From positions 45,744-65,743 of the IMG/VR virus record IMGVR_UViG_2519103125_000002: 20,000 nucleotides of DNA; one strand, given 5' to 3'. The notes below the pieces were generated by a model. It was not told the origin of the DNA, made no database searches, and worked only from the letters and a program-made list of their open reading frames with translations. The DNA comes from an uncultured virus (IMG/VR IMGVR_UViG_2519103125_000002). Lineage: Duplodnaviria > Heunggongvirae > Uroviricota > Caudoviricetes. The position numbers were made by a program, and so were the translations under genes. Each line of letters opens with the position of its first letter. The first letter of the stretch is position 1. Positions 816 to 20,000 of the stretch are shown one piece after another.

Positions 816-1448
816 TTAGTTTGTTTGTTCTATTTTTTCTACTTGTTCTTGCTCTTCAGTTTCAGAAGTTTCTTTTTCAGCCTGTTTAACCCACTTTGTT
901 AATTTCTTAAGTACTTCTCCAGCTTGTTTTAATGTCAATTCGCCAACCTCTTTAATACCTAAGTATCCTTTAATCGTGTCTTCATCCACTTTTCGAAGGG
1001 TAGCTAATTTTTTTATGTTTAATTTAATTGCACCAACTTGTTGAGCAGTAATCATTTCCTCCTGGATCTCTGGTAAATCTTCACCTGCATAGATGTACAA
1101 TCCTAATCCGTGAAGTGCAATTGCCTTTACTAAGCAACGTTGGATACTTGTGTTAATGTCAAAGCTGTTAGGCTCTGCAATCGGCTTGTTCTGATTGTTA
1201 AGTATCGGGTGAATCTGACTTAGTGATATTCCTTGTACAGTTACTTCAACTTCTACAAAGTAACCACAATCTGTTTTGAGGTAAGGCACTCCATCAAATC
1301 GTTTTACTTCCCATGTAGCTGTTGGATCTACTTCACGAAGCTTTTTAACTGCCCATGCCCACGATAAGTAATTAAAACGCCCTTTCTTCTCAACATGTCC
1401 CGAACAATCTATTTGAGCCAATTTAGAAAAGTAATTTTCAGTTATCAT
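816..1448 (-). CDS. Sak3/DUF1071-family single-strand annealing recombinase
   Basis: Motifs VEKKGRFNYLSWAWA and DINTSIQRCLVKAIALHGLGLYIYAGEDLP; upstream of the replication genes. Confidence 0.9.
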   Translation of the reverse strand: MITENYFSKLAQIDCSGHVEKKGRFNYLSWAWAVKKLREVDPTATWEVKRFDGVPYLKTDCGYFVEVEVTVQGISLSQIHPILNNQNKPIAEPNSFDINTSIQRCLVKAIALHGLGLYIYAGEDLPEIQEEMITAQQVGAIKLNIKKLATLRKVDEDTIKGYLGIKEVGELTLKQAGEVLKKLTKWVKQAEKETSETEEQEQVEKIEQTN

Positions 1449-2677: not shown

Positions 2678-2703
2678 GCCCTGCATCCCCTTGCAGGGCT
2701 TTT
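2678..2703 (+). terminator. Intrinsic terminator hairpin
   Basis: gccctgca-tcccct-tgcagggc followed by T4. Confidence 0.6.
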
Positions 2704-2704
2704 A

Positions 2705-2957: not shown

Positions 2958-3011
2958 TTACATCGCCTCCCTATCCATTTCTGGAATAATTCCGCGTTTC
3001 GTTAGAAGTTC
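2958..3011 (-). pseudogene. Orphan C-terminal tail resembling a phage antirepressor (ELLTKRGIIPEMDREAM*)
   Basis: Startless frame beginning right after the HNH stop and ending TAA directly before the next ATG. Resembles the end of Bacillus phage KilAC antirepressors (from memory). Confidence 0.5.
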
Positions 3012-3012
3012 G

Positions 3013-3549
3013 TTACACATGCTTCCAAGTCTCATTTCTTACAACCTTCCCTATAGTTGAATGTGATGTTCCGAATGTTCTAGCCATTGCTCTAGCTCCA
3101 TATTTAGAGTGGCCTGGTTTGTAGTGTTTTCTTATCCATTCAATTTGTTCTTCAGTAAAAACAGCTGTATGAATCTGTTCACCTTTTGCGTTTAAATCAT
3201 TTTTAATTGCATGTTTTTTATTTTCCTTATCTGTCACAAATTCCAAATTGCTTAATCTGTTATTAGTCTTATCTCCATCAATATGATTAACTTGCATCTT
3301 CTCTTCTTGGCACTTATTAAAAGATTCAATAACTAATCTGTGTATATAAAATCTCCTTTGTATTCCTTTTTCGTCAGTTAATCCTATTCTTAAATAACCT
3401 TTTTTGGTAACAACAGGTGTTAAGATTCTGCCTTTTACGCTATTCCCTCTTTTTATAACTGTTTTAACTCTACCTAGATTGCTAATCACATATATCCCTT
3501 CATAACCTATTAAATCTACCCATATCTCATTTTGTTCTTTTGATTCCAC
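3013..3549 (-). CDS. NUMOD4-HNH homing endonuclease-like protein
   Basis: EIWVDLIGYEGIYVISNLGRVKT (NUMOD4), HRLV...VNHIDGDKTNNRLSNLE (HNH_3), C-terminal HTH-like segment. Confidence 0.93.
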   Translation of the reverse strand: MESKEQNEIWVDLIGYEGIYVISNLGRVKTVIKRGNSVKGRILTPVVTKKGYLRIGLTDEKGIQRRFYIHRLVIESFNKCQEEKMQVNHIDGDKTNNRLSNLEFVTDKENKKHAIKNDLNAKGEQIHTAVFTEEQIEWIRKHYKPGHSKYGARAMARTFGTSHSTIGKVVRNETWKHV

Positions 3550-5018: not shown

Positions 5019-6167
5019 CTATATAATCCCTAGAGATTTCTTAGGTAATTGAGCATAAAAAATATTCCCTAATCGCTCAAACATATCTAGTGATTTCAAT
5101 AACAGTTCTTTGTCATTTTTCGCTAGGCCTAAATAGTAAATTTGAAATGCGCTCAGTTCCCCGTTCTCTTCTTTCAACTTCATTAAAATTTTAATTGCAT
5201 GTTCATTATTACCCTTTTGTATTTCTAAATATGCTTGTTCAGCAGCATGTAATGGTTTAATATTTTCTAAATCAACTTTATGATGTATTTTTAGAAACTC
5301 AATAGTATTAGCTATCATTGTTCTTCTCATTTCCATTTGATTACTCGACTCTTTCTCTAAAATGCTCAATGCTTTTTTCAGATAAAATATCGATTTGTCA
5401 AAGGATTCATCACATAGCATAAACGATTCTCCCAATACACCATATACTGTTGCTTCTACAACAGGAAAACGATTATTGATAGGTATACTTTGTATCACTT
5501 CTTCGCATATTTCTCTTAGTTTTTCTAGTTCGTATGCGGTTAAATGACCATGAATTGCACATTCCTTTATCTTATAAAAAAACGATTCTTTTAGATAAGG
5601 ATCTTTAATATCATTTAGTTTCTCCATTAAAAAATCGGATTTGTTAACCATTAACTTAAAGTTACCTTGATCGTAAGCTGATAGCATTTCTATTTCTTCG
5701 GATAAAATCTCTAATTCTTTACTTTTTAATTTGAGGTATTTCTTTCTCTTATTTAATTCCAAAAGTAATTTTTCGCCTTTTATGTGTCCTTTATATCTTT
5801 TATAAATCAGTTCATACAAGCTTGCCCATTCGCGATTTTCTTTATTTGCTGAAGTCATTTCTTGGTCTACTAGTCGTTTTAAAAGTTCCAACTCTCCATG
5901 AGCCATTAAATAATTCATCGCAATTTTTTTATTAAGATGTCTTTTAGTATTAGTAAAGTATTTAGCGCAAAGATCTCGACGTAACTCTACATCATTAGGA
6001 TAAGCGATTTTTAAAAGTTCTCCGTACTTGTCGAATCTAATTCCATCTTTCTCCTTAAAAAATTTAGAAACCGTCACGTTGCTTAAACTGATTTGTTTTG
6101 AAATATTTCTATCGCTTATTCCTTTAGCGTACAAATCATTTTGCAACTTCACTATTGAACTTTGCAC
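5019..6167 (-). CDS. aimR: AimR-family arbitrium peptide receptor (HTH + TPR, RRNPP)
   Basis: 382 aa, N-terminal HTH, NREWASLYEL motif, C-terminal LSAFQIYYLGLA...GNIFYAQLPK; followed by a secreted pro-peptide. Confidence 0.92.
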   Translation of the reverse strand: MQSSIVKLQNDLYAKGISDRNISKQISLSNVTVSKFFKEKDGIRFDKYGELLKIAYPNDVELRRDLCAKYFTNTKRHLNKKIAMNYLMAHGELELLKRLVDQEMTSANKENREWASLYELIYKRYKGHIKGEKLLLELNKRKKYLKLKSKELEILSEEIEMLSAYDQGNFKLMVNKSDFLMEKLNDIKDPYLKESFFYKIKECAIHGHLTAYELEKLREICEEVIQSIPINNRFPVVEATVYGVLGESFMLCDESFDKSIFYLKKALSILEKESSNQMEMRRTMIANTIEFLKIHHKVDLENIKPLHAAEQAYLEIQKGNNEHAIKILMKLKEENGELSAFQIYYLGLAKNDKELLLKSLDMFERLGNIFYAQLPKKSLGII

Positions 6168-6270
6168 AATCTTTGTCCTCCTTGTTGGACAAAAAAGACA
6201 CGTTACCCTAGATTTCTTACATTTAAGGAAAACGCGTCACTATATCTAGGATGTGTGTTATAATTATGTA

Positions 6271-6361
6271 CGAGACTTATGACAAGTGTTCCCCTAGGCA
6301 CATTAGGGCGGACCGTGGAAGAGTGTTACCAGCACTACTTGCACAGCCATGAGTCTTTTTT
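6271..6361 (+). ncRNA. Putative structured small RNA upstream of aimR on the opposite strand
   Basis: TGTTATAAT at 6256-6264; ends pair (agacttatg 6273-6281 with catgagtct 6348-6356, then a T run); two internal hairpins. Confidence 0.45.
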
Positions 6362-6602
6362 ACGTCCGTTTATTTTATTATTTTCATAATATCATATTTT
6401 TGCCAAAATTCAGTCGTGGGGTTATCAGAAAAATGTTGAGAAAGTTTGAAAATAGCTGTATATCAATGGTTTCTCATACTTATGGATAAGGATATGCAAT
6501 AGTACATCTTTTTTTAAGCTTATATACAATGCTTATACTAAAGTTTGGTACAATTGTATTGTATATTTTGGGTGGTAATTTATAAGAAATGGGGCGAGGT
6601 AG

Positions 6603-8099
6603 TTGGGAGTAAAAATAGCAATATTAATTGGTGTAAGCGAATATAAAAATATTAGTAATTTAGATGCATGCTTATGTGATATTGAGGTAATGCATGAACT
6701 ACTTAAGCAAACAAATGAATATAGTGAAATTTTATTTATTAACAAGAATTTGAATAGTAATCAAGTAAAAGACCAAGTTGTAGAGTTTGTAAAAAAATAT
6801 GAAAATCCTGAGGAAGAAATCGATCAGGTATTTTTCTATTTTACTGGACATGGTAAGACAAACTCATCTGATGTTCATTTCTTGTTATCAGATTATGAAT
6901 CCACAAAGTTAAAGGCTACTTCTTTACAAAATTCAGAGGTAGATAGTTATTTACGATTGTTAAGTCCTAAATTAGCTGTAAAGGTCATTGACGCATGCTA
7001 TTCAGGTGCTACATATATTAAAGACGATGAACAACTTGTAGAAAAAACTTTAAGGGAATCTGCAAGGAAAAAAGAATTGAGAGACTGTTATTTTATGTTT
7101 TCGTCTCAAAATAATGAACCTTCTCTTGCACAAAGGTTAAGTTATTTTACAGAAAGTTTTGTCCAAGCAGTTCTTGATCAAGATGCTGGAACTACAATTA
7201 GATTTAAGAATATTACAGACAGAATATCTGATACATTTAGTTCAATATATAAAGACGAACAAACTCCTAAGTTTGTTTTTCAAGCTAATCTTACAGAGGA
7301 TTTTTGTTCAGTAACAACTGAGTTAAAAGAACAAGTTGAAAAAAAATTAGAGGATATCGGGGCAGTTACTTCAGAAGCCTTAGTAGAAGAAAAAGAAGAA
7401 TTTTCCTTAATCGAAATGGTTAAAAAAGAAGCAGAAGATTACTGTACAGATTTTTCGGAAATCATAAATGCTGTTGATATAATAGGGGATAAGTTTGAAA
7501 AGTTTACACTACCAAATCACATAGCTGACCTCTATGAGTTATCAGTTAATAAAGGTTGTATAAATAGAGGGATTCCTTTAAGTAATATTGATAAACATAA
7601 AGCTGTACTTAATTTACTTAAAGAAAAACAAAATGATTATTTTGTTAATGTAATATATGAAGAGGAAGAAGAATCTACAAATCCTTATAGCCTTGCTTCA
7701 CTATATCCCTCATTTGGAAGGAAAAAAGAAAAGAAACCTATAGATTTAGAAGTGCTATCTGGGGATATTCCCTTTGATTATATCTCTATTGAAATTAAGG
7801 CGAAGTATCCTAGTCTTAAATCTTATAAATTTTCGTTAATAATTTTCCTGTCACGTATGAATTTCCTGATTATGAATTCTGTTGCGCCATATAAGGAAAT
7901 TGCATGGAATCAATTTGCAACAGAAGAAGAAGAAATGAAATGGGTATACAGGGAAATTAAAATTAAAGACACTCCACATTTGACAATCACTACTGAAAAA
8001 ATCTTAAGTCAGTGTACGAATATCATACTTGATGAACTAGGAACAAAATTTGAAATGCAAGGTAAAGACAAAAATGGTAATTTGATTAAAACACCATAA
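6603..8099 (+). CDS. Caspase-family (peptidase C14) protein with unrecognised C-terminal domain
   Basis: AILIGVSEY N-terminus; intact catalytic dyad FYFTGHG and IDACYSG; S-FT-SFVQA and QTP motifs. Confidence 0.88.
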   Translation: MGVKIAILIGVSEYKNISNLDACLCDIEVMHELLKQTNEYSEILFINKNLNSNQVKDQVVEFVKKYENPEEEIDQVFFYFTGHGKTNSSDVHFLLSDYESTKLKATSLQNSEVDSYLRLLSPKLAVKVIDACYSGATYIKDDEQLVEKTLRESARKKELRDCYFMFSSQNNEPSLAQRLSYFTESFVQAVLDQDAGTTIRFKNITDRISDTFSSIYKDEQTPKFVFQANLTEDFCSVTTELKEQVEKKLEDIGAVTSEALVEEKEEFSLIEMVKKEAEDYCTDFSEIINAVDIIGDKFEKFTLPNHIADLYELSVNKGCINRGIPLSNIDKHKAVLNLLKEKQNDYFVNVIYEEEEESTNPYSLASLYPSFGRKKEKKPIDLEVLSGDIPFDYISIEIKAKYPSLKSYKFSLIIFLSRMNFLIMNSVAPYKEIAWNQFATEEEEMKWVYREIKIKDTPHLTITTEKILSQCTNIILDELGTKFEMQGKDKNGNLIKTP

Positions 8100-8243
8100 T
8101 AAGATTCAGAAAAAGGAAATGTCTATAGCATAATTAATTATGCTTATACAAAAGGAAAATATACATTTTGGACACTCCCTTTCGCTCATAACATATTCAA
8201 TAATTGAATTTCTAAACATATTACAAACTTGTGTATATTACCC

Positions 8244-8281
8244 AAAAAAGAACTTGTAGTAATTTCTACAAGTTCTTTTTT
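8244..8281. terminator. Bidirectional terminator between caspase and KAP NTPase
   Basis: aaaaaagaacttgtag-taattt-ctacaagttctttttt. Confidence 0.8.
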
Positions 8282-8358
8282 CTTTTCTAATTAATAATAA
8301 AAGAGATTTATACTATACGGATTCAAATAGAGTAATTGTCCTATTATTTTCAACTCTA

Positions 8359-10920
8359 TCATATAGATTGACACTGTATCATTCTATCTTCCCACCAATC
8401 AGGGTAAACAATAATTTCTTCTATATCCTTTTCATATAATGTTGTAATAAAATCGCTAAAATCCTTTAAAATTGAGAATGAGTATACCGATACCTCTTCA
8501 GAAGTTACTCCTTTCCAAAGGATTTTTACAAATTCTTCATTCTTTAATACTTCTCTTACTTTTTCGGCATGTATATAAGAAGCATCAACGTTTAAGTGGT
8601 GATTGCATAAATACATATATGTAAGGAAATTCTCTCGGATTACAAGGTCTTCTTTTGCCATTTCTGCAAGATTGTCTAGTTTATTGTATATATCAGATTT
8701 ATGGAATCGTGAATCTCTGAATAAATAATACTTTTCGAGAGAAAAATCTTTGTCACTCCAAATATTAAGTCCGTTTTTCAAACTAAACTTATCTAGTAAA
8801 TTTCGAATATAAAATGGCTCAATAATTTTAAGTAAATTTATTTTATAGTCATTAAACTGAAGGGACATTTTCTCATCAGGATACCATGGGTCTATAATTT
8901 CTAATAACTTTTCATTGTAATTATCCGCAAGTATTTCAGTTAACTCCTTAATTATTTTCTTTTCTCTATTTCTGTTATCAATATATATATATCTATAAAA
9001 TTCCTCGTATCCATTCATATTAGTATTTATCCAAATCTTTAATTGTTTATAAAGTAAATTAAAGATTTGAACTTGATATTCTGGTATGACTAGAGGTATT
9101 AATTCTTGAATATGATTATCTAAATCTACTAGTTCTTGCTGATAGTTCTTCGCTGTTACATGATATTTAGTTACATGGATTTTACCAAAAAGCTCGTCCC
9201 GATGATTAAAGATATGTTCAATATATTGTGATTTTAAATTTCCATTTATTAAATCGTCAAATTTTGTGTTATCTAAACGCAATCTTTCATAGTTTGATTT
9301 ATATTCCTTCCATGTTAATACACTTGAACTCTCAATAATTCTAAAGTACAGATCAAAATTCTTATCCAATTTATTTATCTGTATTTGTAATCCCATAATA
9401 ATATTTTTAGCTCTTTTCATATCTTTGGATTCCACGGGATATTTATTTAAAATTTCTTTTGCGTCATCCTCTGTAATTAGACTAGCCTTTTTCTTAGAAA
9501 TATAGGAAGGTGAAAACATTCCCCTAACCTCTGAATCCCTTAATATTCCTTTATATACATTTGGAAATTCTAGATTAAGTATTTGGACTAAGTATATAAA
9601 ATTTAAGTTTATTTCATCGCTTTCAAATCGTTGAAGTATAGTTGCAAGTAAGTTCATGTTTTGAAGATACCTTTTTAGGGTTCTTGGATTATTTGGTAAA
9701 TAACTTTTAATATTATTAATAACCTTGGTATCAATTTGATTTTTGGGTTTATTCAATTCTTTTTGTAATAAATCCATTCTTCCTTCCACTGATGGTTCAT
9801 CAATTGTTATATGGTAATTTATAATTTTTTCTAAGAATAAGTTCCCACTTGTTAAATTCATTTCTTTAGTAATTATTTTACTAACTGTCTCATCATCTAT
9901 TGCGAGAACGTAAGAAATTTTATCAATATTAATAATTTCTTTCACTGTTTTTAATATAGTTAAAATTCTCTTAGCATCATCCAAACGGTCTAAATCATCA
10001 ATAAATACAATAATTTTTGCGTTTTGGGGTAAATTTATATTTAAGTAATTATTAATGGCTGCCTTAATTTCATTCTCTATAGGTGTTCCGGCATTTTTTA
10101 TAAGTTCATCAATTAGCTTTCCAATTGGCAATTTAGAGGTTGAATGTTGAAAAATTCTCAATGAAAATGCTTTGATTGACCTAAATATAGGAAAATTAAG
10201 GACCCCCTTATCGTGCATAATTAATTCTTGTTCTATAGCCTCTCGAAAGCCAATCCATAACTCCTTGTCGCTGTGGTATGTCCATGGATTAAACCAGCAC
10301 ACAATAAAATTCTCTTTCTTTTGTAATGATTCCTTAACTAAGTTCATTAGAGACGTCTTACCAGATCCCCACCTACCGTAAACACCTATCTTTAGGCTTT
10401 CATCTTGATGCTTTTCTAGCATTTCAGCTATCCTTTCTGCTGTATTAATTCTTCCTAATGCATCCTCTGATGATGAATATATAGACTCGTCTGAATTATT
10501 ATTGGTAGATTTAAGTTCCTTTATCTTGCATTTCATTCCTCTTTTATATAAATAATAACTACTTACTAATAAAGATAAAAAAATGAGTTGAAGTGTAATA
10601 GTGTCATTTTTCCATATGAAAAGAAGACAGCAAATTACGATGCATACAAAACTAAGAATATATAAAACTTGATATCTCTTCATTGCTTTAACGTAAAAAA
10701 AGATTTTAACTAATGAAAAGAATATTATTCCTAAAGTAATGAGCAATACAGTATTGAATAAATGCAGATCAGATGCTTTAGCAACGAATTTTTCTATCAT
10801 TACATTTATTTTATATGGTATTTTATGAGGTATTTCATAAATTCCTGAACCAATCAATAGCACAGCTAATATTTTAAATACAGAATCAACATAAAACCTT
10901 TTTTTATTCACTTTTTTCAC
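8359..10920 (-). CDS. KAP-family P-loop NTPase with N-terminal transmembrane helices
   Basis: About 4 hydrophobic segments; DALGR, Walker A GRWGSGKTS, WFNPW, Walker B VFIDDLDRL, FLEKII, NPRTLKRY. Confidence 0.9.
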   Translation of the reverse strand: MKKVNKKRFYVDSVFKILAVLLIGSGIYEIPHKIPYKINVMIEKFVAKASDLHLFNTVLLITLGIIFFSLVKIFFYVKAMKRYQVLYILSFVCIVICCLLFIWKNDTITLQLIFLSLLVSSYYLYKRGMKCKIKELKSTNNNSDESIYSSSEDALGRINTAERIAEMLEKHQDESLKIGVYGRWGSGKTSLMNLVKESLQKKENFIVCWFNPWTYHSDKELWIGFREAIEQELIMHDKGVLNFPIFRSIKAFSLRIFQHSTSKLPIGKLIDELIKNAGTPIENEIKAAINNYLNINLPQNAKIIVFIDDLDRLDDAKRILTILKTVKEIINIDKISYVLAIDDETVSKIITKEMNLTSGNLFLEKIINYHITIDEPSVEGRMDLLQKELNKPKNQIDTKVINNIKSYLPNNPRTLKRYLQNMNLLATILQRFESDEINLNFIYLVQILNLEFPNVYKGILRDSEVRGMFSPSYISKKKASLITEDDAKEILNKYPVESKDMKRAKNIIMGLQIQINKLDKNFDLYFRIIESSSVLTWKEYKSNYERLRLDNTKFDDLINGNLKSQYIEHIFNHRDELFGKIHVTKYHVTAKNYQQELVDLDNHIQELIPLVIPEYQVQIFNLLYKQLKIWINTNMNGYEEFYRYIYIDNRNREKKIIKELTEILADNYNEKLLEIIDPWYPDEKMSLQFNDYKINLLKIIEPFYIRNLLDKFSLKNGLNIWSDKDFSLEKYYLFRDSRFHKSDIYNKLDNLAEMAKEDLVIRENFLTYMYLCNHHLNVDASYIHAEKVREVLKNEEFVKILWKGVTSEEVSVYSFSILKDFSDFITTLYEKDIEEIIVYPDWWEDRMIQCQSI

Positions 10921-11096: not shown

Positions 11097-11118
11097 GAGA
11101 GCCTCGGCTCTCTTTTTT
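11097..11118 (+). terminator. Repeated terminator family A, copy 1
   Basis: gagagc-ctcg-gctctc + T6; other copies at 13867, 15388, 19026, 19613. Confidence 0.75.
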
Positions 11119-11125
11119 ATTTTCA

Positions 11126-11169
11126 TTCGACAAAATATGACAATATACAAATAACTTGTTTGCTACCAT
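11126..11169 (+). promoter_or_regulatory. Repeated cassette promoter, copy 1 (tandem 0A-like boxes + extended -10)
   Basis: TTCGACA-aaa-TATGACA-21 bp-TACCAT, with TGn before the -10. Confidence 0.7.
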
Positions 11170-11208
11170 GAGATGAGAAATCTTACATTTTGGAGGCCGC
11201 TAATAATA

Positions 11209-12282
11209 ATGAGTAATAAAAACAAAGGGAAAAAACCAACCGAGTCACAACTTGCAAAAAAAGCGATAGCAAGTAAATATCAAACTTCGCCTATTATCGT
11301 AGAAACTAAGTTCAGTTCAACTGATCGTGGCTATGCTGCCATAGATAAAGATCATATTCAATTATTTAAGTACAACAAAGAAACACAAAATGTTTCTAGT
11401 GTTGGCACATATAATTTCAATGAATACGACACTGTTACTATTGATAAATTCGCCGTGAAAGCGGTTATGGAATTTAAAGGAATGAATAAAACATTCGTAT
11501 TTACACCAACACAGCAAACTAATGATATTGAACGCTTAATCCAAACAAATACTTCAATTCAAATCAATAAAGTGGAGCGTAAATTACATAACAAGATACT
11601 CGGTTTCCGATCTAATACTAAATGGAAAATGGTTGTAGCTAGTGCTGTTTACCTATTTATTGTTATTGCTGCAATTAGTGGTTTCATGGATAAAAAAGAG
11701 AATAAAGTTGCTTCTAGCACCCCAAAACAAGAGGCCAAGATAGAAAGTCAATCTGATACGAAAAAAGAAACTAATTCTAAGCCTCAAGATACAGTTTTAA
11801 AAATGGACGATGGCCGTAATGTTAACATGGAGATTTACAACAAGTACGGTGTTAAATATCAGTCTCATGAGCCAACTACAAAGGATAAGGATGCAATGGA
11901 GCATTTTGAAAAAATGGCTGAGAAATATAACATGTCTGTTCCTGAGTACATTTCCAAAGAAGATGAAATTGTAGCTGCTAATGTTCAAAGGAAAAAAGAA
12001 GAAAAACAAAAAGCTGACGAAGAAAACAAACAACGTGCTGGATCTAGTAGACCAGGTTTAACAAAAGTGAAATTCGAAAACATTCAAAACGGTATGACAT
12101 ATGAACAAGTAAAAGAAATTATAGGTACCGATGGAGAATTAATATCTGAAGGTGGAGAGAAAGGAACTGAATTCTACACAGTTATGTATATGTGGGAAGG
12201 TGTAGGCTCACCGGGCGCTAATGCTAACTTTATGTTCCAAGGTGGAAAACTAAATAGTAAAGCACAATTTGGATTGAAATAA
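11209..12282 (+). CDS. Membrane-anchored protein with C-terminal DUF3862/BLIP-like domain
   Basis: Start MSNKNKG after GGAGG; central TM helix; FENIQNGMTYEQVKEIIG...W...ANFMFQGGKLNSKAQFGL. Confidence 0.75.
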   Translation: MSNKNKGKKPTESQLAKKAIASKYQTSPIIVETKFSSTDRGYAAIDKDHIQLFKYNKETQNVSSVGTYNFNEYDTVTIDKFAVKAVMEFKGMNKTFVFTPTQQTNDIERLIQTNTSIQINKVERKLHNKILGFRSNTKWKMVVASAVYLFIVIAAISGFMDKKENKVASSTPKQEAKIESQSDTKKETNSKPQDTVLKMDDGRNVNMEIYNKYGVKYQSHEPTTKDKDAMEHFEKMAEKYNMSVPEYISKEDEIVAANVQRKKEEKQKADEENKQRAGSSRPGLTKVKFENIQNGMTYEQVKEIIGTDGELISEGGEKGTEFYTVMYMWEGVGSPGANANFMFQGGKLNSKAQFGLK

Positions 12283-12286
12283 AAAT

Positions 12287-12306
12287 GCACTCGAAAGAGT
12301 GCTTTT
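12287..12306 (+). terminator. Repeated terminator family C, copy 1
   Basis: gcactc-gaaa-gagtgc + T4; identical at 17136, variant at 16115. Confidence 0.75.
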
Positions 12307-12340
12307 AATTATGAATTCATACGCAAAAGGGGAGTAAACA

Positions 12341-13156
12341 GTGAAATTAACTTTATTTACAATATCTAACGAACAAATTAAAGAACAATTGAGCAAATTA
12401 CAAACGAAGGTTGAGTCTTTGGAGACTGTAAAAGATGTACAAGATAAGATTATCTCCACTAAAGACAGTCAAATTACATTCCTACAAGGGGAGATTTCTA
12501 ATATAACTAGTTGGGTTACTTGGGGAGCCGCAGCCGTTATCACTCTCGCATCTGCGGCATTCATTTATATTAAGTTTTTAGAGCGTAAAGCTAAAAAGAA
12601 AATTGAAGAAGCGGAAAACACATTACAATTAGTTACTGAAAAGTTGGCAGAAGTTGAAAATTCAAGGCAACAAACCGAAAGTAACTTAACTGAATCAGAT
12701 TCAAGAATAGAACAACTAGACATATTAATCGAAAAATCCAATAATATAGCAACTATTGCTCAAGAAAAGATTGATAAATTAGAAGAAAAACACAAAGATC
12801 TATATGATTTAACGACTGCTACAACCATAAACCAAAAAATTGATATGTCAATTAAAGAAATAGATATGTATTTAGATTTTTCTAAGAATATTATTGATAG
12901 AATTTATACCTATCATGAAAAAACAATTAAAATATCACAAAAACAAATGGAGAAATTAACTTATTTAAACAGCCAACATACATCATTTTTAAATGCTTAT
13001 CGAAGATTATTTTCAATTTTTAGTGCTGATATAGCTGAAGGACGAAAAATCAATACTGATGATATGACTGAAGGTACTAACCACCTGAAAATGAACAGTA
13101 TAAATTTATATAAAGAGTGCATAGAACTTGATGATAAGTTAGGATTACTATCCTGA
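12341..13156 (+). CDS. Single-pass membrane coiled-coil protein, unknown function
   Basis: GGGGAG RBS + GTG; TM segment WVTWGAAAVITLASAAFIYI; heptad-like E/K/L-rich stretches. Confidence 0.75.
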   Translation: MKLTLFTISNEQIKEQLSKLQTKVESLETVKDVQDKIISTKDSQITFLQGEISNITSWVTWGAAAVITLASAAFIYIKFLERKAKKKIEEAENTLQLVTEKLAEVENSRQQTESNLTESDSRIEQLDILIEKSNNIATIAQEKIDKLEEKHKDLYDLTTATTINQKIDMSIKEIDMYLDFSKNIIDRIYTYHEKTIKISQKQMEKLTYLNSQHTSFLNAYRRLFSIFSADIAEGRKINTDDMTEGTNHLKMNSINLYKECIELDDKLGLLS

Positions 13157-13210
13157 CAACATAAATTATCAGATTCATATTTGTATTTTTTAATAAGCAC
13201 TACATACAAA

Positions 13211-13298
13211 CATGTAATAATTGTGTTCGATGGGAGTCCAAGACATAGTATTAAAATTAAGATGGTTCAAGTCGGAAGGCACCTTTGGGTGTCTTTTT
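13211..13298 (+). repeat. Intergenic element B, copy 1
   Basis: ...gtccaagacatagtattaaaattaagatggttcaagtcggaaggcacctttgggtgtcttttt; homologous to 17984-18078 and 18865-18916. Confidence 0.85.
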
Positions 13299-13306
13299 CC
13301 TTACCT

Positions 13307-13350
13307 TTCGACAGAATATGACAAATTAAGAAGGTGTAATTTGCTATTAT
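13307..13350 (+). promoter_or_regulatory. Repeated cassette promoter, copy 2
   Basis: TTCGACA-gaa-TATGACA-21 bp-TATTAT, with TGn. Confidence 0.7.
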
Positions 13351-13392
13351 CATCTTATTATCAATATAAACTGTTATAAAAAGGAGATATAC

Positions 13393-13863
13393 ATGCTAGA
13401 ATTTAAAGGGCAACTAAGTACACTAGTAGTCACACCAACTAAAATTACTATTAAATACTCTCGTTTGATCGGCAGGGGATCTAAAGAAATCCAAATCAAA
13501 AGTCTTACGGGTATACAATTCAAACCACCAGGCTTCCTTTCACATGGTTATATTCAATTCGTTTTCCCTGGAAGCTCTGAAGTAAAAACTAAATCCACCT
13601 CTGACTTGGCAAAAGATGAAAATACTGTCATGTTTAATAAACACGAATATAACAATTTCTTAAAAGCAAAAGATTTAATAGAAGGGTACATGAACGAACA
13701 AGAAAAAAATACTTTCGCTTCTAATGACCATTCTTCTACAACAAATCCTGTAAATACCTATTCTGTCGCTGACGAAATCACTAAACTAGCTGCATTGAAA
13801 GATCAAGGGATTCTAACAGAAGAAGAGTTTACAGCAAAAAAGAAACAACTATTAGGAATATAA
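13393..13863 (+). CDS. DUF4429-like + SHOCT domain protein
   Basis: KEIQIKSLTGIQFKPPG...GYIQF...DENTVMF; C-terminal ADEITKLAALKDQGILTEEEFTAKKKQLL (SHOCT). Confidence 0.85.
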   Translation: MLEFKGQLSTLVVTPTKITIKYSRLIGRGSKEIQIKSLTGIQFKPPGFLSHGYIQFVFPGSSEVKTKSTSDLAKDENTVMFNKHEYNNFLKAKDLIEGYMNEQEKNTFASNDHSSTTNPVNTYSVADEITKLAALKDQGILTEEEFTAKKKQLLGI

Positions 13864-13866
13864 TAA

Positions 13867-13889
13867 GGGGGCTTCGGCTCTCTTTTTTT
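13867..13889 (+). terminator. Repeated terminator family A, copy 2
   Basis: gggggc-ttcg-gctctc + T7. Confidence 0.8.
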
Positions 13890-13969
13890 ATTTATGATAT
13901 TTCACCTCTAATATCTTTAAATTAATTTAAAGTGATATAATGATTATAATTACTTATAGGAGGTATATT

Positions 13970-15343
13970 ATGAAAAAGAAATTTATGCTAATGATGCTTC
14001 TGTTTATATTGATGGTAGGATTACATCCTACTTCAATGACAAAAGCAGAAACTACAAGTGTACAAGGTGAACAATTTGAACAGGGGAAGTATGATTTAAA
14101 AGCTGAATCTCCATTTGGATATAACTGGAATAAAAACTCATCTCATGCGGGAACAGAAACAGGTGAGGTGAAATGGGAATACAAGCTTTATAAAAAGGAT
14201 GGTGGTAATCAATTTTTCAGTGCTCCACCAGCAGTTGGAAGAGATGGGACGATTTACGTCGGAAACTCCAATGAGAAATTGTATGCATTCAATCCTAACG
14301 GTTCCATTAAATGGATTAAAGATGATGTAGCTTATATGTATTGTACACCAGTTATAGCGGAAGATGGAACTATTTATGTTGTAAACAAAAAACTAACAGC
14401 TCTAAATCCCGATGGTTCCATTAAATGGGAAGATAAAAATGCAAATGCTTTCAGCACACCTATTATAGATAGTGAAGGTACAGTTTATATACATAATTCA
14501 AAATCAATAACTGCTTATAATTCGGATGGATCAAAGAAATGGGAATCAAGTCAGATGTTCGAAGGAGCTAATAGTGGTAAGAATACTATAGTCATGTCGA
14601 AAGATGGAACTATTTACACCTTACTTTCAAGTGGCGAAAATTATTTTATCTATGCCCATAATAAGAATGGTAAAGAGTTATGGAAAAAACAGATTAGAGG
14701 AGGGTGGGGGCACCCAGGTTTTTCTTTAGGATTAGATAATGAATTATATATAAGTGCTGGCTCTGTTATCTTTGTTTTTGATAAAGATGGAAACCTAATA
14801 AAAGAGTGGAAGCCAGGGGCACAAGCTGCTGTTACAATCTCTTCCAAGGATGGAGCAATTTATACGACTGGAGGTGGCACGGTAGCTGCTTATAATCGAG
14901 ACTACACACTAAGGTGGAAATTCTTACCGGATGAAGGTGGGTTGAACTCACCGATAATAGATAAAAATGGTGTAGTTTATGTTAATTCAAAAAAAACAGT
15001 ATACGCAGTAAATCCAGATGGAACGCTAAAATGGAAGATGCCGTTTTCATCATTTGATCCTGGTGCTCCAAATGATGCTATAACCATTGGTAGCGATGGA
15101 ACTTTATACATGCTGGGATATGTTCCAGAACTAACTTACTTTGGTCCTGACAAAACGTATTTTTCAGTAGTAGCTATTGGCGACTCTTATACAGACACTG
15201 TATGTACCAAAGATAGTACATACATGCAAGTACTTAAATCACTTGAAGCAAAGAGTAAGACTGCTAAGTTAACAGATGAAGAGAAGAAAGAAGCACGTGA
15301 TATTTTGAAGAAATTATCGGCTGATCTTGATAAAACAGAGTAG
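13970..15343 (+). CDS. Secreted PQQ-like beta-propeller repeat (cell-surface) protein
   Basis: Signal peptide from MKKKFML after AGGAGG; repeated P-hydrophobic-xxDGTIY...A-h-NPDGSIKW blades. Confidence 0.85.
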   Translation: MKKKFMLMMLLFILMVGLHPTSMTKAETTSVQGEQFEQGKYDLKAESPFGYNWNKNSSHAGTETGEVKWEYKLYKKDGGNQFFSAPPAVGRDGTIYVGNSNEKLYAFNPNGSIKWIKDDVAYMYCTPVIAEDGTIYVVNKKLTALNPDGSIKWEDKNANAFSTPIIDSEGTVYIHNSKSITAYNSDGSKKWESSQMFEGANSGKNTIVMSKDGTIYTLLSSGENYFIYAHNKNGKELWKKQIRGGWGHPGFSLGLDNELYISAGSVIFVFDKDGNLIKEWKPGAQAAVTISSKDGAIYTTGGGTVAAYNRDYTLRWKFLPDEGGLNSPIIDKNGVVYVNSKKTVYAVNPDGTLKWKMPFSSFDPGAPNDAITIGSDGTLYMLGYVPELTYFGPDKTYFSVVAIGDSYTDTVCTKDSTYMQVLKSLEAKSKTAKLTDEEKKEARDILKKLSADLDKTE

Positions 15344-15387
15344 TAAACTTGGGCGGATCATTACAGATATAGTAACTTTTGATGGAA

Positions 15388-15460
15388 GAGGGCTTCGGCT
15401 CTCTTTTTTATTTTCCTTCGACATAATATGACAATATAATAATGTTTGTTTTGATAAGAT
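15388..15460 (+). promoter_or_regulatory. Terminator A copy 3 fused to cassette promoter copy 3
   Basis: gagggcttcggctctc-T6, then TTCGACA(15417)-taa-TATGACA-21 bp-TAAGAT with TGn. Confidence 0.75.
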
Positions 15461-15504
15461 TGTCCAGAAATATTATATTTTATATATCTTGGAGGAATTA
15501 AATT

Positions 15505-16104
15505 ATGAGTAAAAAATTATTAATGGCTTTAGCATGCAGCGTGTTACTTATGGGATTGGCTGCTTGTGGTTCAAATGATAAAGCAAGTACATCAGAAGAA
15601 CCAAAACAAGAAACTAAAAAAGAAGAGGAACAAAAGAAGTTAGATGAGCAAAAACAGGAAGAGGAACAAAAGAAAATAGAAGAACAGAAAAAGGCCGAAG
15701 AACAAAAGCAAGCTGAGGAACAAAAGAAGTTAGAAGAACAGAAAAAGGCTGAAGAGCAAAAGCAAGCTGAGGAACAAAAAAAGGCTGAAGAACAAAAGCG
15801 ATTAGATGAACAACGCAAACAAGAAGAGGCTCAAAGACAACAGGAAGAACAAAAGAAACAACAAGAAGCAGCTCGAGCAAAAGAACAGGAACAACAAAAA
15901 GCTGCAGCTAATACAGCACCTCAGCAACAAGCTGCACCTAAACAAGAGAAAGTTCACTTTGCAAACTGTACAGATGCAAATAATGCTGGTTACTATGATA
16001 TAACTTCAGATAGCCCAGCTTATGCTTCGCATTTAGATCGTGATGGCGATGGTGTAGCTTGTGAACGAAATAAAGGACATAAAAAATCTAGTAAAAAACA
16101 TTAG
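15505..16104 (+). CDS. Lipoprotein with EEQKK repeats and C-terminal Excalibur calcium-binding domain
   Basis: Lipobox LAAC; FANCTDANNAGY...YASHLDRDGDGVACE. Confidence 0.9.
   Translation: MSKKLLMALACSVLLMGLAACGSNDKASTSEEPKQETKKEEEQKKLDEQKQEEEQKKIEEQKKAEEQKQAEEQKKLEEQKKAEEQKQAEEQKKAEEQKRLDEQRKQEEAQRQQEEQKKQQEAARAKEQEQQKAAANTAPQQQAAPKQEKVHFANCTDANNAGYYDITSDSPAYASHLDRDGDGVACERNKGHKKSSKKH
15625..15822 (+). repeat. About 11 imperfect 18-bp coding tandem repeats (EEQKKx)
   Basis: Hexapeptide periodicity EEQKKL/DEQKQE/EEQKKI/EEQKKA/EEQKQA... Confidence 0.8.
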
Positions 16105-16114
16105 ATTTATAGAT

Positions 16115-16191
16115 AAGCACTCTTATGAGTGCTTTTTTATTTTTCGTTCGACGAAATATGACAAAATAGTTGTAACCGTTTCTGTTATGAT
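16115..16191 (+). promoter_or_regulatory. Terminator C variant fused to cassette promoter copy 4
   Basis: aagcactc-ttat-gagtgctt-T, then TTCGACG(16147)-aaa-TATGACA-22 bp-TATGAT with TGn. Confidence 0.72.
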
Positions 16192-16233
16192 GGTTTCAGA
16201 AATCTTACATTTTACATAATTGGAGGAAACAAA

Positions 16234-16761
16234 ATGTATAAGAAATTGGGTACAATCGCTATAACTGGGGCACTTGCTTTTAGTTTAGCTGCATGTGGTG
16301 AAACTGAAGAAACTGCAAAAAAGGTATCAAATGATACTAAAACTGAACAACCAGCTGAAAAGAAAGAAGAGAAGAAAGAATTTAAAATTGGTGAAATGAT
16401 TCAACTTGGAGACCACAAGTTAACTGTCACAAATATTGAAAAGTCTCAAGGTGGAGAATTTGATAAACCTAAAGAGGGACATGAATTTTTAATCGCTAAG
16501 GTAACTATAGAAAATAGTGGGAAGGAAGAAATAAGTTATAATCCTTTCGATTTTAGCTTACAAAACAGTGAAGGGAATATTGTAGATCAAGCATTTACTA
16601 CAGTTAACCAAGATACTGTGTTGAATTCCGGGAAACTTGCACCAAACGGCAAAATTTCTGGAACTATCGCTTTCGAATCAAAGCAAGGAGATCCTAAGCT
16701 TCAATTAATCTTCAAACCAAATTTCTTATCTAAAAAAGAAATTCGAGTAAATCTTCAATAA
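16234..16761 (+). CDS. DUF4352-family lipoprotein
   Basis: Lipobox LAAC; KPKEGHEFLIAKVTIENSG...YNPFDF...LNSGKLAPNGKISGTIAFE. Confidence 0.85.
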   Translation: MYKKLGTIAITGALAFSLAACGETEETAKKVSNDTKTEQPAEKKEEKKEFKIGEMIQLGDHKLTVTNIEKSQGGEFDKPKEGHEFLIAKVTIENSGKEEISYNPFDFSLQNSEGNIVDQAFTTVNQDTVLNSGKLAPNGKISGTIAFESKQGDPKLQLIFKPNFLSKKEIRVNLQ

Positions 16762-16785
16762 CAAATTAGAAATGGAGTTATCACT

Positions 16786-17130
16786 ATGAAAAGAACAGCT
16801 GAATTTGTATTAGGGCTTATTGGTGGGATTTTTGGAATCCTATGTGCATTTATCGCATTATTTATCGGTGGACTTGGATCTGCTTTAGAAGCTGATGGCG
16901 CAAACACTGTTATTGGCTTAGGATGGGGGGCTGTAGCTCTATCTATATTAGGAATCGTTGGATCTGTTATGGTAAGAAGTAAAGCGAAAGTTGGCGGTAT
17001 CATGATGACTGTTGCTGCTATCGGAGGCTTTATCTGTATATCTCTGATTTACTTATTACCAGGAGTATTATTATTAATCGGCGGATTAATGGGTATCTTC
17101 CGTAAAGATAAAGTTGTTGTATCTGCTTAA
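16786..17130 (+). CDS. DUF4064-family small integral membrane protein
   Basis: MKRTAEFVLGLIGGIFG start; 3-4 TM helices; 24 bp after the DUF4352 gene with no terminator between. Confidence 0.8.
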   Translation: MKRTAEFVLGLIGGIFGILCAFIALFIGGLGSALEADGANTVIGLGWGAVALSILGIVGSVMVRSKAKVGGIMMTVAAIGGFICISLIYLLPGVLLLIGGLMGIFRKDKVVVSA

Positions 17131-17135
17131 AATGT

Positions 17136-17155
17136 GCACTCGAAAGAGTGCTTTT
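17136..17155 (+). terminator. Repeated terminator family C, identical to copy 1
   Basis: gcactc-gaaa-gagtgc + T4. Confidence 0.75.
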
Positions 17156-17195
17156 ATTTTACTCTCTGGCATAAATGAAATTAGGGGTGATGTGT

Positions 17196-17939
17196 TTGAA
17201 AAAACTATTACTTATTATTTCTGCTCTTGGAATACTAATGGTGGGTTGCGAAAATAAAACTGTTGAAAAAGAAGAAAAAACAAGTTCAAGTGAAACACCC
17301 TCTAGTAATACAAACAATAAGAAAGAAGTCTTAACCGATTCTGAATATAGAGCCAAACTCGATCAATCGTTTAACGATATTGATCCATATACAACAGCAT
17401 ACTTAAAAATTGTAAACTCAGGATCTATACAGATGGATAATGAAGACTGGAGAAAAGAAGTAATTACTATTTTAAGAGGATTCGAAACAGTATCAAAGGA
17501 TATGCTATCAATTAGCGCACCTAATAAGTACAGCAAACTACATAGTACGATGGTAGAAGCAATGCAAGGGTTCTCAGATGCATCTTTTATTATGAAAGAC
17601 GCATTAGCAGCTAAAGATATAAATGGATTTCAAAAAGGTCATGAATTGATGCAAAAATCAGCTAGAAAATATACGGAAATTTTCCCTTTGTTACGCGAAA
17701 TTGATGGAAAACAAATTACTACACCAAATATCCCTAATCCAACACCAAAAACAACACCAGTACCTAAAACAGAAGAGCCTGCTGTTCTTAAAGAACAAGT
17801 TCCACCATCTACTTATGATCCTAAGAAAGATTCGGCCGACTATGATAAACACGGAAATTATAAACCAGTTGACCAAATGACTCCAGAAGAGATCAAAAAA
17901 GAAGCTGAAGAGTTCATGACAGATTATTTGAATCGATAA
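17196..17939 (+). CDS. Lipoprotein with helical domain and Pro/Thr-rich linker, unknown function (start TTG 17196 or nearby)
   Basis: GGGGTG RBS; KKLLLIISALGILMVGC lipobox; ORF track 17175..17939. Confidence 0.78.
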   Translation: MKKLLLIISALGILMVGCENKTVEKEEKTSSSETPSSNTNNKKEVLTDSEYRAKLDQSFNDIDPYTTAYLKIVNSGSIQMDNEDWRKEVITILRGFETVSKDMLSISAPNKYSKLHSTMVEAMQGFSDASFIMKDALAAKDINGFQKGHELMQKSARKYTEIFPLLREIDGKQITTPNIPNPTPKTTPVPKTEEPAVLKEQVPPSTYDPKKDSADYDKHGNYKPVDQMTPEEIKKEAEEFMTDYLNR

Positions 17940-17983
17940 AATATAGATATAAACCACATTTCTCAATGAACAAAGGAATTTAA

Positions 17984-18078
17984 CATGGTAAAATAATATT
18001 TGGATTGGCGTCCAATACATATTATTAAAATTAAAGTGGTTCAAGTCAGAGGAAGGCGCCTTAGGGTGTCTTTTCTTT
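17984..18078 (+). repeat. Intergenic element B, copy 2 (most complete; putative sRNA with promoter and terminator)
   Basis: TGGTAAAAT extended -10 at 17986-17994; hairpin ttgga-ttggcg-tccaa; conserved core aaaattaa..tggttcaagtc; terminator aggcgcc-ttag-ggtgtct-T. Confidence 0.8.
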
Positions 18079-18377
18079 ATTTCCAAAAAGGGTATCGAGG
18101 GACTAGCCTTTTCTAATTTGAAAGTAAACTTTTGAATATAAATTCAAAAAAAAAGTTTGAGTTCTATACTTCTTACCCCATAAATAATTTAGTTTTCTTC
18201 CAATCATTGACTTGAGATTCACTACTAATAGAACTAATTATTTTTAAATCTTTTCATGTTAATTATATAGTTTGAATATTCAATTAAATATTTATAAATA
18301 AATTAAAATGTTAGAAAATACAAATAATATGGTATTGTTATTTATGTAATATTCATTCCAAAAAAGGGGGATTTTTC

Positions 18378-18671
18378 ATGTTCAAGAAAGTAATAATTGG
18401 AACATTAGCAACTGGAATTATGTTATCTGGTGCTGGAGGAGTATTTGCGGAAACACCTACTGATACAGGTGTAAAATTAAAAACGATTGATAATAAAAAA
18501 AGTTTTGTTAAGAAAAAAGAAAAACAAGACTTTCCTGGTTACAAATCAAAAGGGGAAATACCTACTGTAAAAGAGTGGGATGGAGTGACTTGGTATTTAA
18601 AAGGAGCAACTGAAGTAAGTAAAAATTCATGGACAGGACATTATGAAGGATGGCGAACAAGTAATAATTAA
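18378..18671 (+). CDS. Secreted LCI-fold (antimicrobial peptide-like) protein
   Basis: Signal peptide MFKKVIIGTLATGIMLSGAGGVFA; C-terminal DGVTWYLKG...WTGHYEG resembles B. subtilis LCI (DGTKWIFKS...WVGIYE). Confidence 0.65.
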   Translation: MFKKVIIGTLATGIMLSGAGGVFAETPTDTGVKLKTIDNKKSFVKKKEKQDFPGYKSKGEIPTVKEWDGVTWYLKGATEVSKNSWTGHYEGWRTSNN

Positions 18672-18712
18672 GAAACTTTAATTAAGTTTTCCAAGAAAAC
18701 AAGTAAACAAAT

Positions 18713-18759
18713 AAAAAGAAGACCGAACTAGATTGTTATTCTAGTTCGGTCTTCTTTTT
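18713..18759. terminator. Strong bidirectional terminator
   Basis: 20-bp perfect inverted repeat aaaaagaagaccgaactaga / tctagttcggtcttcttttt. Confidence 0.85.
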
Positions 18760-18864
18760 ATTTTAAATTCATTAATAATTAATTTTTTCATATCACTATA
18801 AAATACCATTATTAACATCCCTAATATAGTTATAAATAAAGAAATTCCTTCAATGCCATTTTTC

Positions 18865-18916
18865 AAAATTAAGATGGTTCAAGTCCCAGGAAGGCACCTT
18901 TGGGTGTCTTTTCTTT
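18865..18916 (+). repeat. Intergenic element B, copy 3 (3' half only)
   Basis: aaaattaagatggttcaagtcccaggaaggcacctttgggtgtcttttcttt. Confidence 0.85.
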
Positions 18917-19025
18917 ATGATTAGCAATAAGTTCTCTAAATTTCGCAATGACATCCAACGAGCTTATGAGGAGCCAGACGGACGTCAGTAAGGCTGTTTT
19001 GCAAAACATTACCAATTTATCCAAT

Positions 19026-19047
19026 GAGGGCTTCGGCTCTCTTTTTT
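19026..19047 (+). terminator. Repeated terminator family A, copy 4
   Basis: gagggc-ttcg-gctctc + T6. Confidence 0.78.
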
Positions 19048-19068
19048 ATTTACTCTTTTTAAACTAGA

Positions 19069-19095
19069 ACCTTTTTATACAACCTTCATAATATA
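19069..19095 (+). promoter_or_regulatory. Putative sigma-K promoter
   Basis: AC-16 bp-CATA-ata-TA matches the sigK consensus; lies upstream of an exosporium-type gene. Confidence 0.6.
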
Positions 19096-19138
19096 TATGG
19101 GACAACCTTAAACTCTTTTTTGAGAGGAATGATTAGAT

Positions 19139-19600
19139 ATGGCAGATTATTTCTGTAAAGATGGAAAGAAATATTACAAGAAAAAAGATAAATCATGTAA
19201 CTCTTCAAACTCCAATAACTGCTTCATAGAGACATTTACAATTTTCGGCTCTGAAACTACCCCTACAAGTCTTGAAATTCCACCCGGTTCTACAATTACC
19301 CTATTTGAAAATTTTACAACTAATCACAATAAAACTCTAATTCGCTTTAGTTTTAGCCCTGTATTTGCTGCGTTTGTTACATTGACTATTAGAACATTTA
19401 ATTCCACAACTCCCCAAACAATTACATTAACACCAGGAGATAGAAAAACTTTCTTATTTGAGGATGTTCAAAGTATTACTTTCTCAAATGCCACTACAGC
19501 TAACGCTGAACTTAGTCCATTATTTATCCAACAAACAACATGCATCTGCTGTGGTAATTCAGATTCATATTATTATGAATCTAGTGGGGATAATTATTGA
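19139..19600 (+). CDS. exsD: Exosporium protein D-like protein
   Basis: MADYFCKDGKKYYK...NNCFIETFTI...FENFTTNHNKTLI...FIQQTTCICC closely resembles B. cereus ExsD as I recall it. Confidence 0.75.
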   Translation: MADYFCKDGKKYYKKKDKSCNSSNSNNCFIETFTIFGSETTPTSLEIPPGSTITLFENFTTNHNKTLIRFSFSPVFAAFVTLTIRTFNSTTPQTITLTPGDRKTFLFEDVQSITFSNATTANAELSPLFIQQTTCICCGNSDSYYYESSGDNY

Positions 19601-19612
19601 TAAATGATTTTA

Positions 19613-19685
19613 GAGGGCTTCGGCTCTCTTTTTTATTTTCCTTCGACATAATATGACAATATACAAATAAATAGTTTGTTATGAT
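19613..19685 (+). promoter_or_regulatory. Terminator A copy 5 fused to cassette promoter copy 5
   Basis: About 50 bp identical to 15388 onward; TTCGACA(19642)-taa-TATGACA-21 bp-TATGAT with TGn. Confidence 0.75.
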
Positions 19686-19728
19686 AGTTCAGGCAATCTT
19701 ATATTTTAGATACTGGGGGATACATATT

Positions 19729-20000
19729 ATGAACAATAAACTATTAACCGCACTCACAAGTTGCGTTTTAATTATGGGATTAGCAGCATGCTCAAGTAAC
19801 AAAGTAGCAAGTACTTCTAATGACTCTAAAGTTGAAGAAAAATCACAAAAAGAAGCTGATAAGGAGCAAAAAGCTAAACAAGAAGAGGCGCAACGACAGG
19901 CTGAAGAAGAAAAAGCTAAACAAGAAGAACAGCAACGTCAAGAAGCTGAGACGCAACGACAGGCTGAAGAAAAAGCTAAACAAGAAGAACAGCAACGTCA
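19729..20000 (+). CDS. Lipoprotein with E/Q/K-rich repeats, N-terminal part; runs off the window edge
   Basis: Hand-translated MNNKLLTALTSCVLIMGLAACSSNKVASTSNDSKVEEKSQKEADKEQKAKQEEAQRQAEEE...; signal peptide similar to 15505. Not in the ORF track. Confidence 0.85.
   Translation, partial: MNNKLLTALTSCVLIMGLAACSSNKVASTSNDSKVEEKSQKEADKEQKAKQEEAQRQAEEEKAKQEEQQRQEAETQRQAEEKAKQEEQQR

Follow-up and report, generated by a model that had tools for sequence, protein, structure and literature searches.

An accessory gene array with repeated intergenic modules, including a Spo0A-type promoter, in a Bacillus cereus-group phage-plasmid

The stretch analysed here, called the window below, comprises 20,000 nucleotides of an uncultured virus (IMG/VR record IMGVR_UViG_2519103125_000002, positions 45,744 to 65,743) and forms the final 20 kb of a record 65,743 bases long. 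It carries an array of 11 co-oriented genes with copies of four repeated intergenic modules: two terminators (A and C), a composite element (B) and a promoter (P). We define the array as the variable region from aimR to the DNA upstream of parA; it is about 21.6 kb long in the record and runs past the window, over the circular join, into contig positions 1 to about 8000. A first-pass annotation made from the letters of the window had proposed at least 11 such genes, and all 11 open reading frames (ORFs) are present. The left boundary and the genes are as follows.

5019..6167, minus strand: AimR, conserved left boundary; homology with relatives stops near 6511
11209..12282, plus strand: gene 1, membrane protein; C-terminus weakly DUF3862/BLIP-like, below cut-off
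12341..13156, plus strand: gene 2, coiled-coil protein with one transmembrane segment
13393..13863, plus strand: gene 3, DUF4429-SHOCT protein
13970..15343, plus strand: gene 4, secreted PQQ-type beta-propeller; own promoter by sequence
15505..16104, plus strand: gene 5, Excalibur lipoprotein with an 18-base repeat linker
16234..16761, plus strand: gene 6, DUF4352 lipoprotein
16786..17130, plus strand: gene 7, DUF4064 membrane protein
17196..17939, plus strand: gene 8, lipoprotein; DUF7018 match
18378..18671, plus strand: gene 9, secreted LCI-fold peptide
19139..19600, plus strand: gene 10, ExsD/Ena-like Cys-rich protein
19729..20000, plus strand: gene 11, lipoprotein; crosses the circular join and ends at contig position 401

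Pfam confirmed the DUF4429 and SHOCT, PQQ-type propeller, Excalibur, DUF4352, DUF4064 and LCI assignments of that annotation, and the ExsD-like one also stood; its DUF3862 call for gene 1 is weak and falls below the cut-off, and gene 8, listed simply as a lipoprotein, matches DUF7018.

The record termini overlap by 95 bases, inside a tandem repeat of gene 11, and pFORC087.3 and other relatives align straight across the terminal join, which makes circularity of the 65.7-kb record credible. The nearest matches are circular B. cereus-group plasmids of 50-88 kb with aimR, and the relatives were deposited as circular plasmids. In addition to AimR, repressors and a Sak3/DUF1071 annealase, the record encodes a ParA-type ATPase, a replication-relaxation protein, FtsK and a small serine resolvase, as well as head and tail genes identified from the ORF list only. 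Among the enzymes encoded by the complete record there is no tyrosine integrase (0 PF00589 matches; the positive control matched 14/14) and no large serine recombinase, in line with the integrase-free character already proposed. With its structural and partition genes, circular form and lack of an integrase, the element is a B. cereus-group phage-plasmid. The array was previously assumed to lie toward the integrase of a prophage; in this plasmid prophage there is none, and the array continues over the circular join.

The modules of the window lie where they had been placed, all in one orientation:

11097..11122, plus strand: terminator A, variant copy; homology ends at 11108 and 11112
11123..11192, plus strand: P; reversed 0A box 11126-11132, second box/-35 11136-11142, 21-base spacer, extended -10 11164-11169, conserved downstream motif
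12285..12310, plus strand: terminator C (hairpin scan); homology end at 12285
13205..13300, plus strand: B; diverged 5' part, core from 13253, terminator
13301..13372, plus strand: P, box at 13307
13865..13895, plus strand: A; in pFORC087.3 fused directly to the sequence after the 19026 copy of A
15382..15486, plus strand: A+P, P box at 15417; 52-base exact join in the c25 megaplasmid
16111..16216, plus strand: C+P, P box at 16147 with one mismatch
17132..17162, plus strand: terminator C (hairpin scan); homology end
17950..18082, plus strand: full B; extended -10 promoter-like site, small hairpin, near-invariant core, terminator
18864..18920, plus strand: short B, core and terminator only
19020..19052, plus strand: A (hairpin scan, join comparison)
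19607..19712, plus strand: A+P, P box at 19642

The described combinations A+P, C+P and B+P were all recovered, and the DUF4352/DUF4064 junction (genes 6 and 7) is indeed the sole one without a module. A hairpin scan returned 17 sites against 4.0 +/- 1.8 in shuffled sequences, and terminator-like hairpins are located at 11097, 12287, 13865, 15384, 16115, 17136, 18051, 18889, 19026 and 19612. B cores start at 13253, 18027 and 18865, and P copies at 11126, 13307, 15417, 16147 and 19642. Contigs of a sequencing run that may be the source agree with the listed pieces throughout (0 differences), although this comparison is not independent. The whole 21.6-kb array holds 6 B, 6 P, 5 A and 4 C, compared with just 3-7 B, 2-3 P and 0-3 A matches in each of five whole B. 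cereus-group genomes (5/5; 5.2-5.6 Mb). The modules are rare on chromosomes and are not generic genome-wide motifs, a possibility the first-pass annotation had raised. A search of a species collection with B returned 80 stretches, 80/80 with Bacillus titles, and 105 stretches of viral contigs contain B. On the one chromosome inspected, the modules are grouped in islands that show no evident phage genes and harbour related cassettes, among them a gene 10 copy (95.5%) between two copies of A.

The positions at which relatives diverge from the record lie largely in the modules. Homology ends were taken from matches of at least 300 bases at 88% identity or more to the fetched loci, over the region 11000-21955, which reaches 1.96 kb past the join. 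Among 68 distinct ends, 47 fall in modules, which make up 12.6% of the bases, while 19 lie in genes and 2 in other intergenic DNA; 47 of the 49 intergenic ends are in modules, which account for 53% of intergenic bases (p = 3e-11). Two joins are exact. On a megaplasmid of strain c25, gene 10 is joined to gene 5 via an identical A+P stretch of 52 bases, as would be expected where a circle made of genes 5-10 closes, and in pFORC087.3 gene 3 is joined to gene 10 via 20 bases of A, with 5,140 bases skipped. Moreover, an all-against-all comparison of 151 zones revealed 61 three-way joins with a median overlap of 32 bases, of which 44 touch a module, 4 a terminator T-tract only and 13 neither. Random placement gave 3.4 module touches, or 7.2 when confined to positions outside ORFs, and never reached 44 in 2000 trials, under a null that is lenient since the zones include 4-kb flanks.

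Gene content varies among relatives. Anchoring on aimR, the comparison the earlier annotation had called for, retrieved three loci from viral contigs, and 11 aimR-anchored arrays were compared, two of them incomplete at the far end. They span from 3 to over 30 kb and contain 222 ORFs in 144 families, 35 of which occur in at least two arrays and none in all. Shared genes keep their strand (0/161 flips) and mostly their order, which is concordant in 397/414 shared gene pairs and discordant in 17/414; three close plasmids among the arrays inflate this agreement. The annotations suggest a rough zonation, with defence-type genes nearest aimR, envelope proteins in the next zone, and secreted and spore-related genes beyond it. 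Together with the joins, this variation supports cassette gain, loss and replacement at short intergenic homologies. The reordering that had also been proposed is real but uncommon (the 17 discordant pairs).

We consider the following reading probable: general short-homology recombination acts between the intergenic parts of a phage-plasmid accessory region, which additionally carries a Spo0A-type promoter in P. The accessory region of a temperate phage-plasmid would be built from promoter-gene-terminator units, and since A, B, C and P are copied throughout, any two copies would supply 15-80 bases of homology between transcription units. General short-homology recombination, by a phage annealase (Sak3, ERF or RecT) in lytic growth or by host pathways, would then exchange blocks, for the most part between elements that reside in or infect the same cell and at roughly equivalent map positions, and sometimes between non-matching copies. 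The outcome would be deletion, insertion or reordering of cassettes with one hybrid module left behind; because joins fall between terminator and promoter, the products would remain functional. Shared parts would also carry cassettes to megaplasmids and chromosomal islands, and cassettes are indeed common to the phage-plasmids, megaplasmids and chromosomal islands. The annealase named as a candidate catalyst was correctly identified as Sak3:

816..1448, minus strand: Sak3/DUF1071 annealase (PF06378); candidate, non-dedicated catalyst

Since relatives with arrays carry Sak3, ERF or RecT, it is a plausible but not a dedicated catalyst; Sak3 is one of several interchangeable annealases. Phage annealases work on short, diverged homologies, according to the available excerpt of PMC8093625.

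Selection alone could produce a similar picture, if cassettes move by rare illegitimate joins, of which only those between terminator and promoter survive, and a small number of module families mimics homology-driven overlaps. Overlaps of 10 bases or less in 8/61 joins, several of them in terminator T-tracts, would fit this, as would the mostly conserved gene order. However, overlaps reach at least 14 bases in 53/61 joins, the 52- and 20-base overlaps are exact with near-identical parents on both sides, and identical terminators behind unrelated genes require copying. In some relatives extra cassettes lie between two B copies where others, with the same flanks, have one B, and such pairs likewise argue against selection alone, which we regard as improbable.

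The contexts of B bear on a further alternative. In the 204 full contexts of B, 116 left flanks occur in combination with 133 right flanks. If B were a MITE-like repeat (MITE, miniature inverted-repeat transposable element) that inserts itself between genes, with shuffling as a by-product, empty sites should be found, yet 0/234 flank pairs lack B; 211 have one B and 23 are longer, 18 of which (14 after removal of duplicates) by eye start and finish in B. Furthermore, all B copies in the 11 arrays are on one strand and no terminal inverted repeat is evident in the B consensus. Chromosomes also carry B, and B. cereus has known mobile repeats, the bcr group A elements (in the accessible part of PMC3184786), but we consider a MITE-like origin highly unlikely.

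The nature of B itself is more puzzling. Besides a promoter-like site and a terminator, it comprises a small hairpin and an unstructured, near-invariant core, and the core, including its unstructured stretch, is 94-100% invariant at most positions over the 204 contexts, a figure that leans upward as many loci were fetched with the B pattern. B may encode a short RNA of about 80 bases. In two RNA runs from other strains (X21 and X23; 54 and 302 reads), reads on B, of unclear strand sense, run past the terminator, with no clusters of starts or ends there. A structured RNA was considered and rejected (single-copy z -1.82; consensus folding of 183 copies keeps the terminator only). Rfam gave no match at B and three weak matches elsewhere, far below the gathering score, and the sole R-box-like pairing of B showed no compensatory change and no covariation. 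The invariance of B would also suit a dedicated system, in which B is a functional site, such as a short RNA or a protein-binding site, targeted by a specific enzyme, for example a LAGLIDADG-like protein or a host recombinase. The restriction of B to 7/301 genomes sampled from the order points the same way, as does a LAGLIDADG-like gene at the far, parA-proximal end of 7/11 arrays. The absence of tyrosine and large serine recombinases from the record stands against such a system. The crossover windows do not overlap one another; they map to the A hairpin, to T-tract plus P, to the core of B, to one or the other arm of its terminator and to repeat linkers. Those within B are likewise disjoint, and outside B there are windows in A, C+P and lipoprotein repeats. 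Polymorphisms inside B are weakly linked to either flank with no sharp linkage switch, and the bottom strand of B has no attC-like fold (z +0.45). A dedicated system thus seems rather unlikely to us. The LAGLIDADG-like gene of the record (contig 7297-7968, minus strand, just before the parA-proximal non-coding region) encodes a 223-aa protein, the nearest named clusters of which are LAGLIDADG-like (scores 0.92-0.94); it may be either an endonuclease that stands alone or a DNA-binding protein tied to replication.

Module P adds a regulatory side to the recombination of cassettes. Statistics were compiled over 144 distinct copies found with a pattern that includes the 0A boxes (up to 3 mismatches) and excludes the spacer and -10. 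In 125/144 copies the opening seven bases match the Spo0A core (0A) motif, as quoted from an excerpt of PMC3485338, exactly in reverse, a figure that leans upward because the pattern contains the box. A second near-box follows 10 bases on and covers the -35 position; the extended -10 is found at a spacer of 21 or 22 bases in 129/144 copies and of 17 in 1/144. Long spacers are typical of spoIIE/spoIIG-class promoters; our reading of a B. thuringiensis chromosome gives 22 bases upstream of spoIIGA and 21 upstream of spoIIE. A generic sigma-70 scan of the window (35 sites against 38 in shuffles) was uninformative because the spacer of P is long. Both spoIIG and spoIIE are sigma-A-dependent Spo0A targets, as stated in the available portion of PMC12090719. 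P looks like a promoter of this layout, predicted to be activated by Spo0A: it shares 0A-like boxes at and upstream of -35 and the 21-22-base spacer, and differs in its perfect upstream box, its reuse as a mobile part and its uncharacterised cargo. With P as a Spo0A~P-activated sigma-A promoter, the envelope genes behind it would join the transition-phase and sporulation programme of the host. Given the likeness to spoIIE and spoIIG, Spo0A of the host probably controls the envelope cargo. The layout, which the first-pass annotation had not described, points to transition-phase or sporulation expression, and we think it quite likely that the cargo is expressed at the transition to sporulation or biofilm. 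A lipobox follows P in 43/144 copies, and many others precede membrane-anchored N-termini. Gene 10 is ExsD/Ena-like, and YjcZ genes occur further on. Just 3' of the -10, a conserved 12-base motif (11178-11191 in the first copy) is found in 125/144 copies and is possibly the site of a second regulator.

Several points weigh against short-homology recombination as we propose it. Gene order is largely kept (397/414), partly by shared descent of the three close plasmids. Within genes there are 19/68 homology ends, mostly in lipoprotein repeat linkers, and 13/61 joins touch neither module nor T-tract, 5 of them in such linkers. B is more invariant than a terminator requires, which our reading explains by homogenisation only. 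Module limits were drawn after the data had been seen, and wherever two sequences have a module in common their alignment tends to extend into it. The null is lenient, and the B and 0A-box figures lean upward. Joins of 5-20 bases could be independent of RecA and annealases, and both the catalyst and the excised circles are elements we infer. Spo0A activation and cargo function are likewise predicted. In a bolder version, the B. cereus group would have an integrase-free exchange linking its phage-plasmids, chromosomal islands and conjugative megaplasmids; B would be actively maintained, either as the gene of a short RNA or as the target of an enzyme (possibly the LAGLIDADG-like protein), and P would plug any captured envelope gene into the Spo0A regulon. 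We consider this version doubtful; if true, lysogens would gain a variable, sporulation-timed surface or anti-phage kit.

The closest known counterpart is the set of PeSL promoter/stem-loop cassettes of the T4-type phages RB49 and phi1, in which short-homology recombination has been demonstrated (Arbiol et al. 2010, PMC2839356, of which excerpts were available). As far as these excerpts describe it, both systems have repeated promoter and terminator parts beside non-essential or accessory ORFs, indels that leave one chimeric part and no integrase, and the PeSL authors likewise draw the integron analogy. PeSL belongs to a lytic coliphage and has one composite part, a strong early sigma-70 promoter and demonstrated mini-circles, whereas the present array, known from sequence alone, belongs to a temperate phage-plasmid and has four parts in mixed combinations, a Spo0A-type promoter, envelope and spore cargo, and a pool shared with megaplasmids and chromosomes. 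The array works like a PeSL array without being a strict member of that class. The term "integron-like", used in the first-pass annotation, is apt only as an analogy. Integrons are defined by IntI, attC, a fixed crossover and mostly promoterless cassettes read from one Pc. The array shares with them unrelated, co-oriented, exchangeable genes parted by repeated non-coding DNA, but has no record-encoded IntI, no attC fold, no single crossover point, and five P copies and terminators between genes, giving cassettes their own promoters. Morons of lambdoid phages are promoter-gene-terminator units, and boundary or linker sequences supply brief stretches of conserved intergenic homology where mosaic segments meet; in the present case a single genome contains the same parts in many copies, which allows ectopic exchange as well. 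The repeats bcr1-bcr18 of the B. cereus group are group-specific and intergenic, and some are tied to rearrangements (PMC3184786, accessible part). B differs in lacking empty sites and in its concentration in accessory arrays, a distinction drawn from this review description. In the literature within our scope, which left aside subscription papers (the bcr paper among them) and supplements, we found no description of these arrays and no match to three module motifs; term look-ups in PMC8026635, PMC11526630 and PMC7969092 returned no passage on them. What the present analysis adds is the grammar of four parts, the Spo0A-type promoter and the exact joins in A and in A+P.

Exchange of this kind would offer a concrete and testable route for accessory genes to move among B. 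cereus-group phages, plasmids and chromosomes without integrases or transposases, and the modules provide a search handle for an uncharacterised gene pool (the 144 families of the 11 arrays). The promoter would link prophage cargo to the sporulation or biofilm decision of the host and predicts the timing of dozens of uncharacterised envelope proteins. Superinfection exclusion by the cargo is possible by analogy. The lipoprotein Ltp is reportedly a precedent for it. Part of the gene pool may also be defensive, as DUF4352 belongs to a mycobacterial phage-resistance protein (PMC12596739, in excerpt). A PADLOC and NCBIfam search of genes 1-11 placed none in a curated family.

Further details of the array genes are as follows. 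Gene 2 has weak XhlA and JetC coiled-coil scores only; as there is no space for its own promoter downstream of C, it would be transcribed by read-through. The repeat linker of gene 5 is a secondary site of crossover and length variation. The cluster nearest to gene 10 is of the 'Exosporium protein D'/Ena kind (score 0.95), with PF13157 found in 26% of its members, and we take the promoter of gene 10 to be sigma-K-like, judged by eye against the consensus. After gene 11, the contig continues with B, a DUF4352 gene and C+B, followed by DUF4236-like, LCI-like, YjcZ and DUF5065 genes. Two further features of the window are:

6603..10920: aimR-proximal defence-like slot; caspase-like gene (plus strand) facing a KAP NTPase/PifA-like gene (minus strand)
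18709-18763: 24-bp bidirectional terminator after gene 9

The KAP NTPase of the slot is PifA-like (E 2e-33), and in relatives the same slot holds restriction, TIR, DUF262/HEPN, AAA+DUF4435 or DUF4297 genes; the slot beside aimR appears from these annotations to be a defence hotspot. In plasmid pBCA2, aimR is annotated as two pieces (L007:24654-25825). A NUMOD4-HNH endonuclease gene (window 3013-3549, minus strand) is present in some close relatives and absent from others. The chromosome of B. thuringiensis lyx16 contains islands with A, B, P and array-type cargo (L204:9400-16000, L205:8000-13800 and L206:7500-14200). The lipoprotein heads of genes 5 and 11 (15505-15850 and 19729-20000), each comprising promoter, signal peptide and charged repeat linker, are homologous, and in relatives heads of this type are joined to differing C-terminal domains. 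Finally, a unit of a secreted LCI-type leader gene (minus strand) and a YjcZ gene (plus strand) is duplicated at contig 2500-3480 and 5880-6790; the two copies are about 78% alike and recur in relatives.

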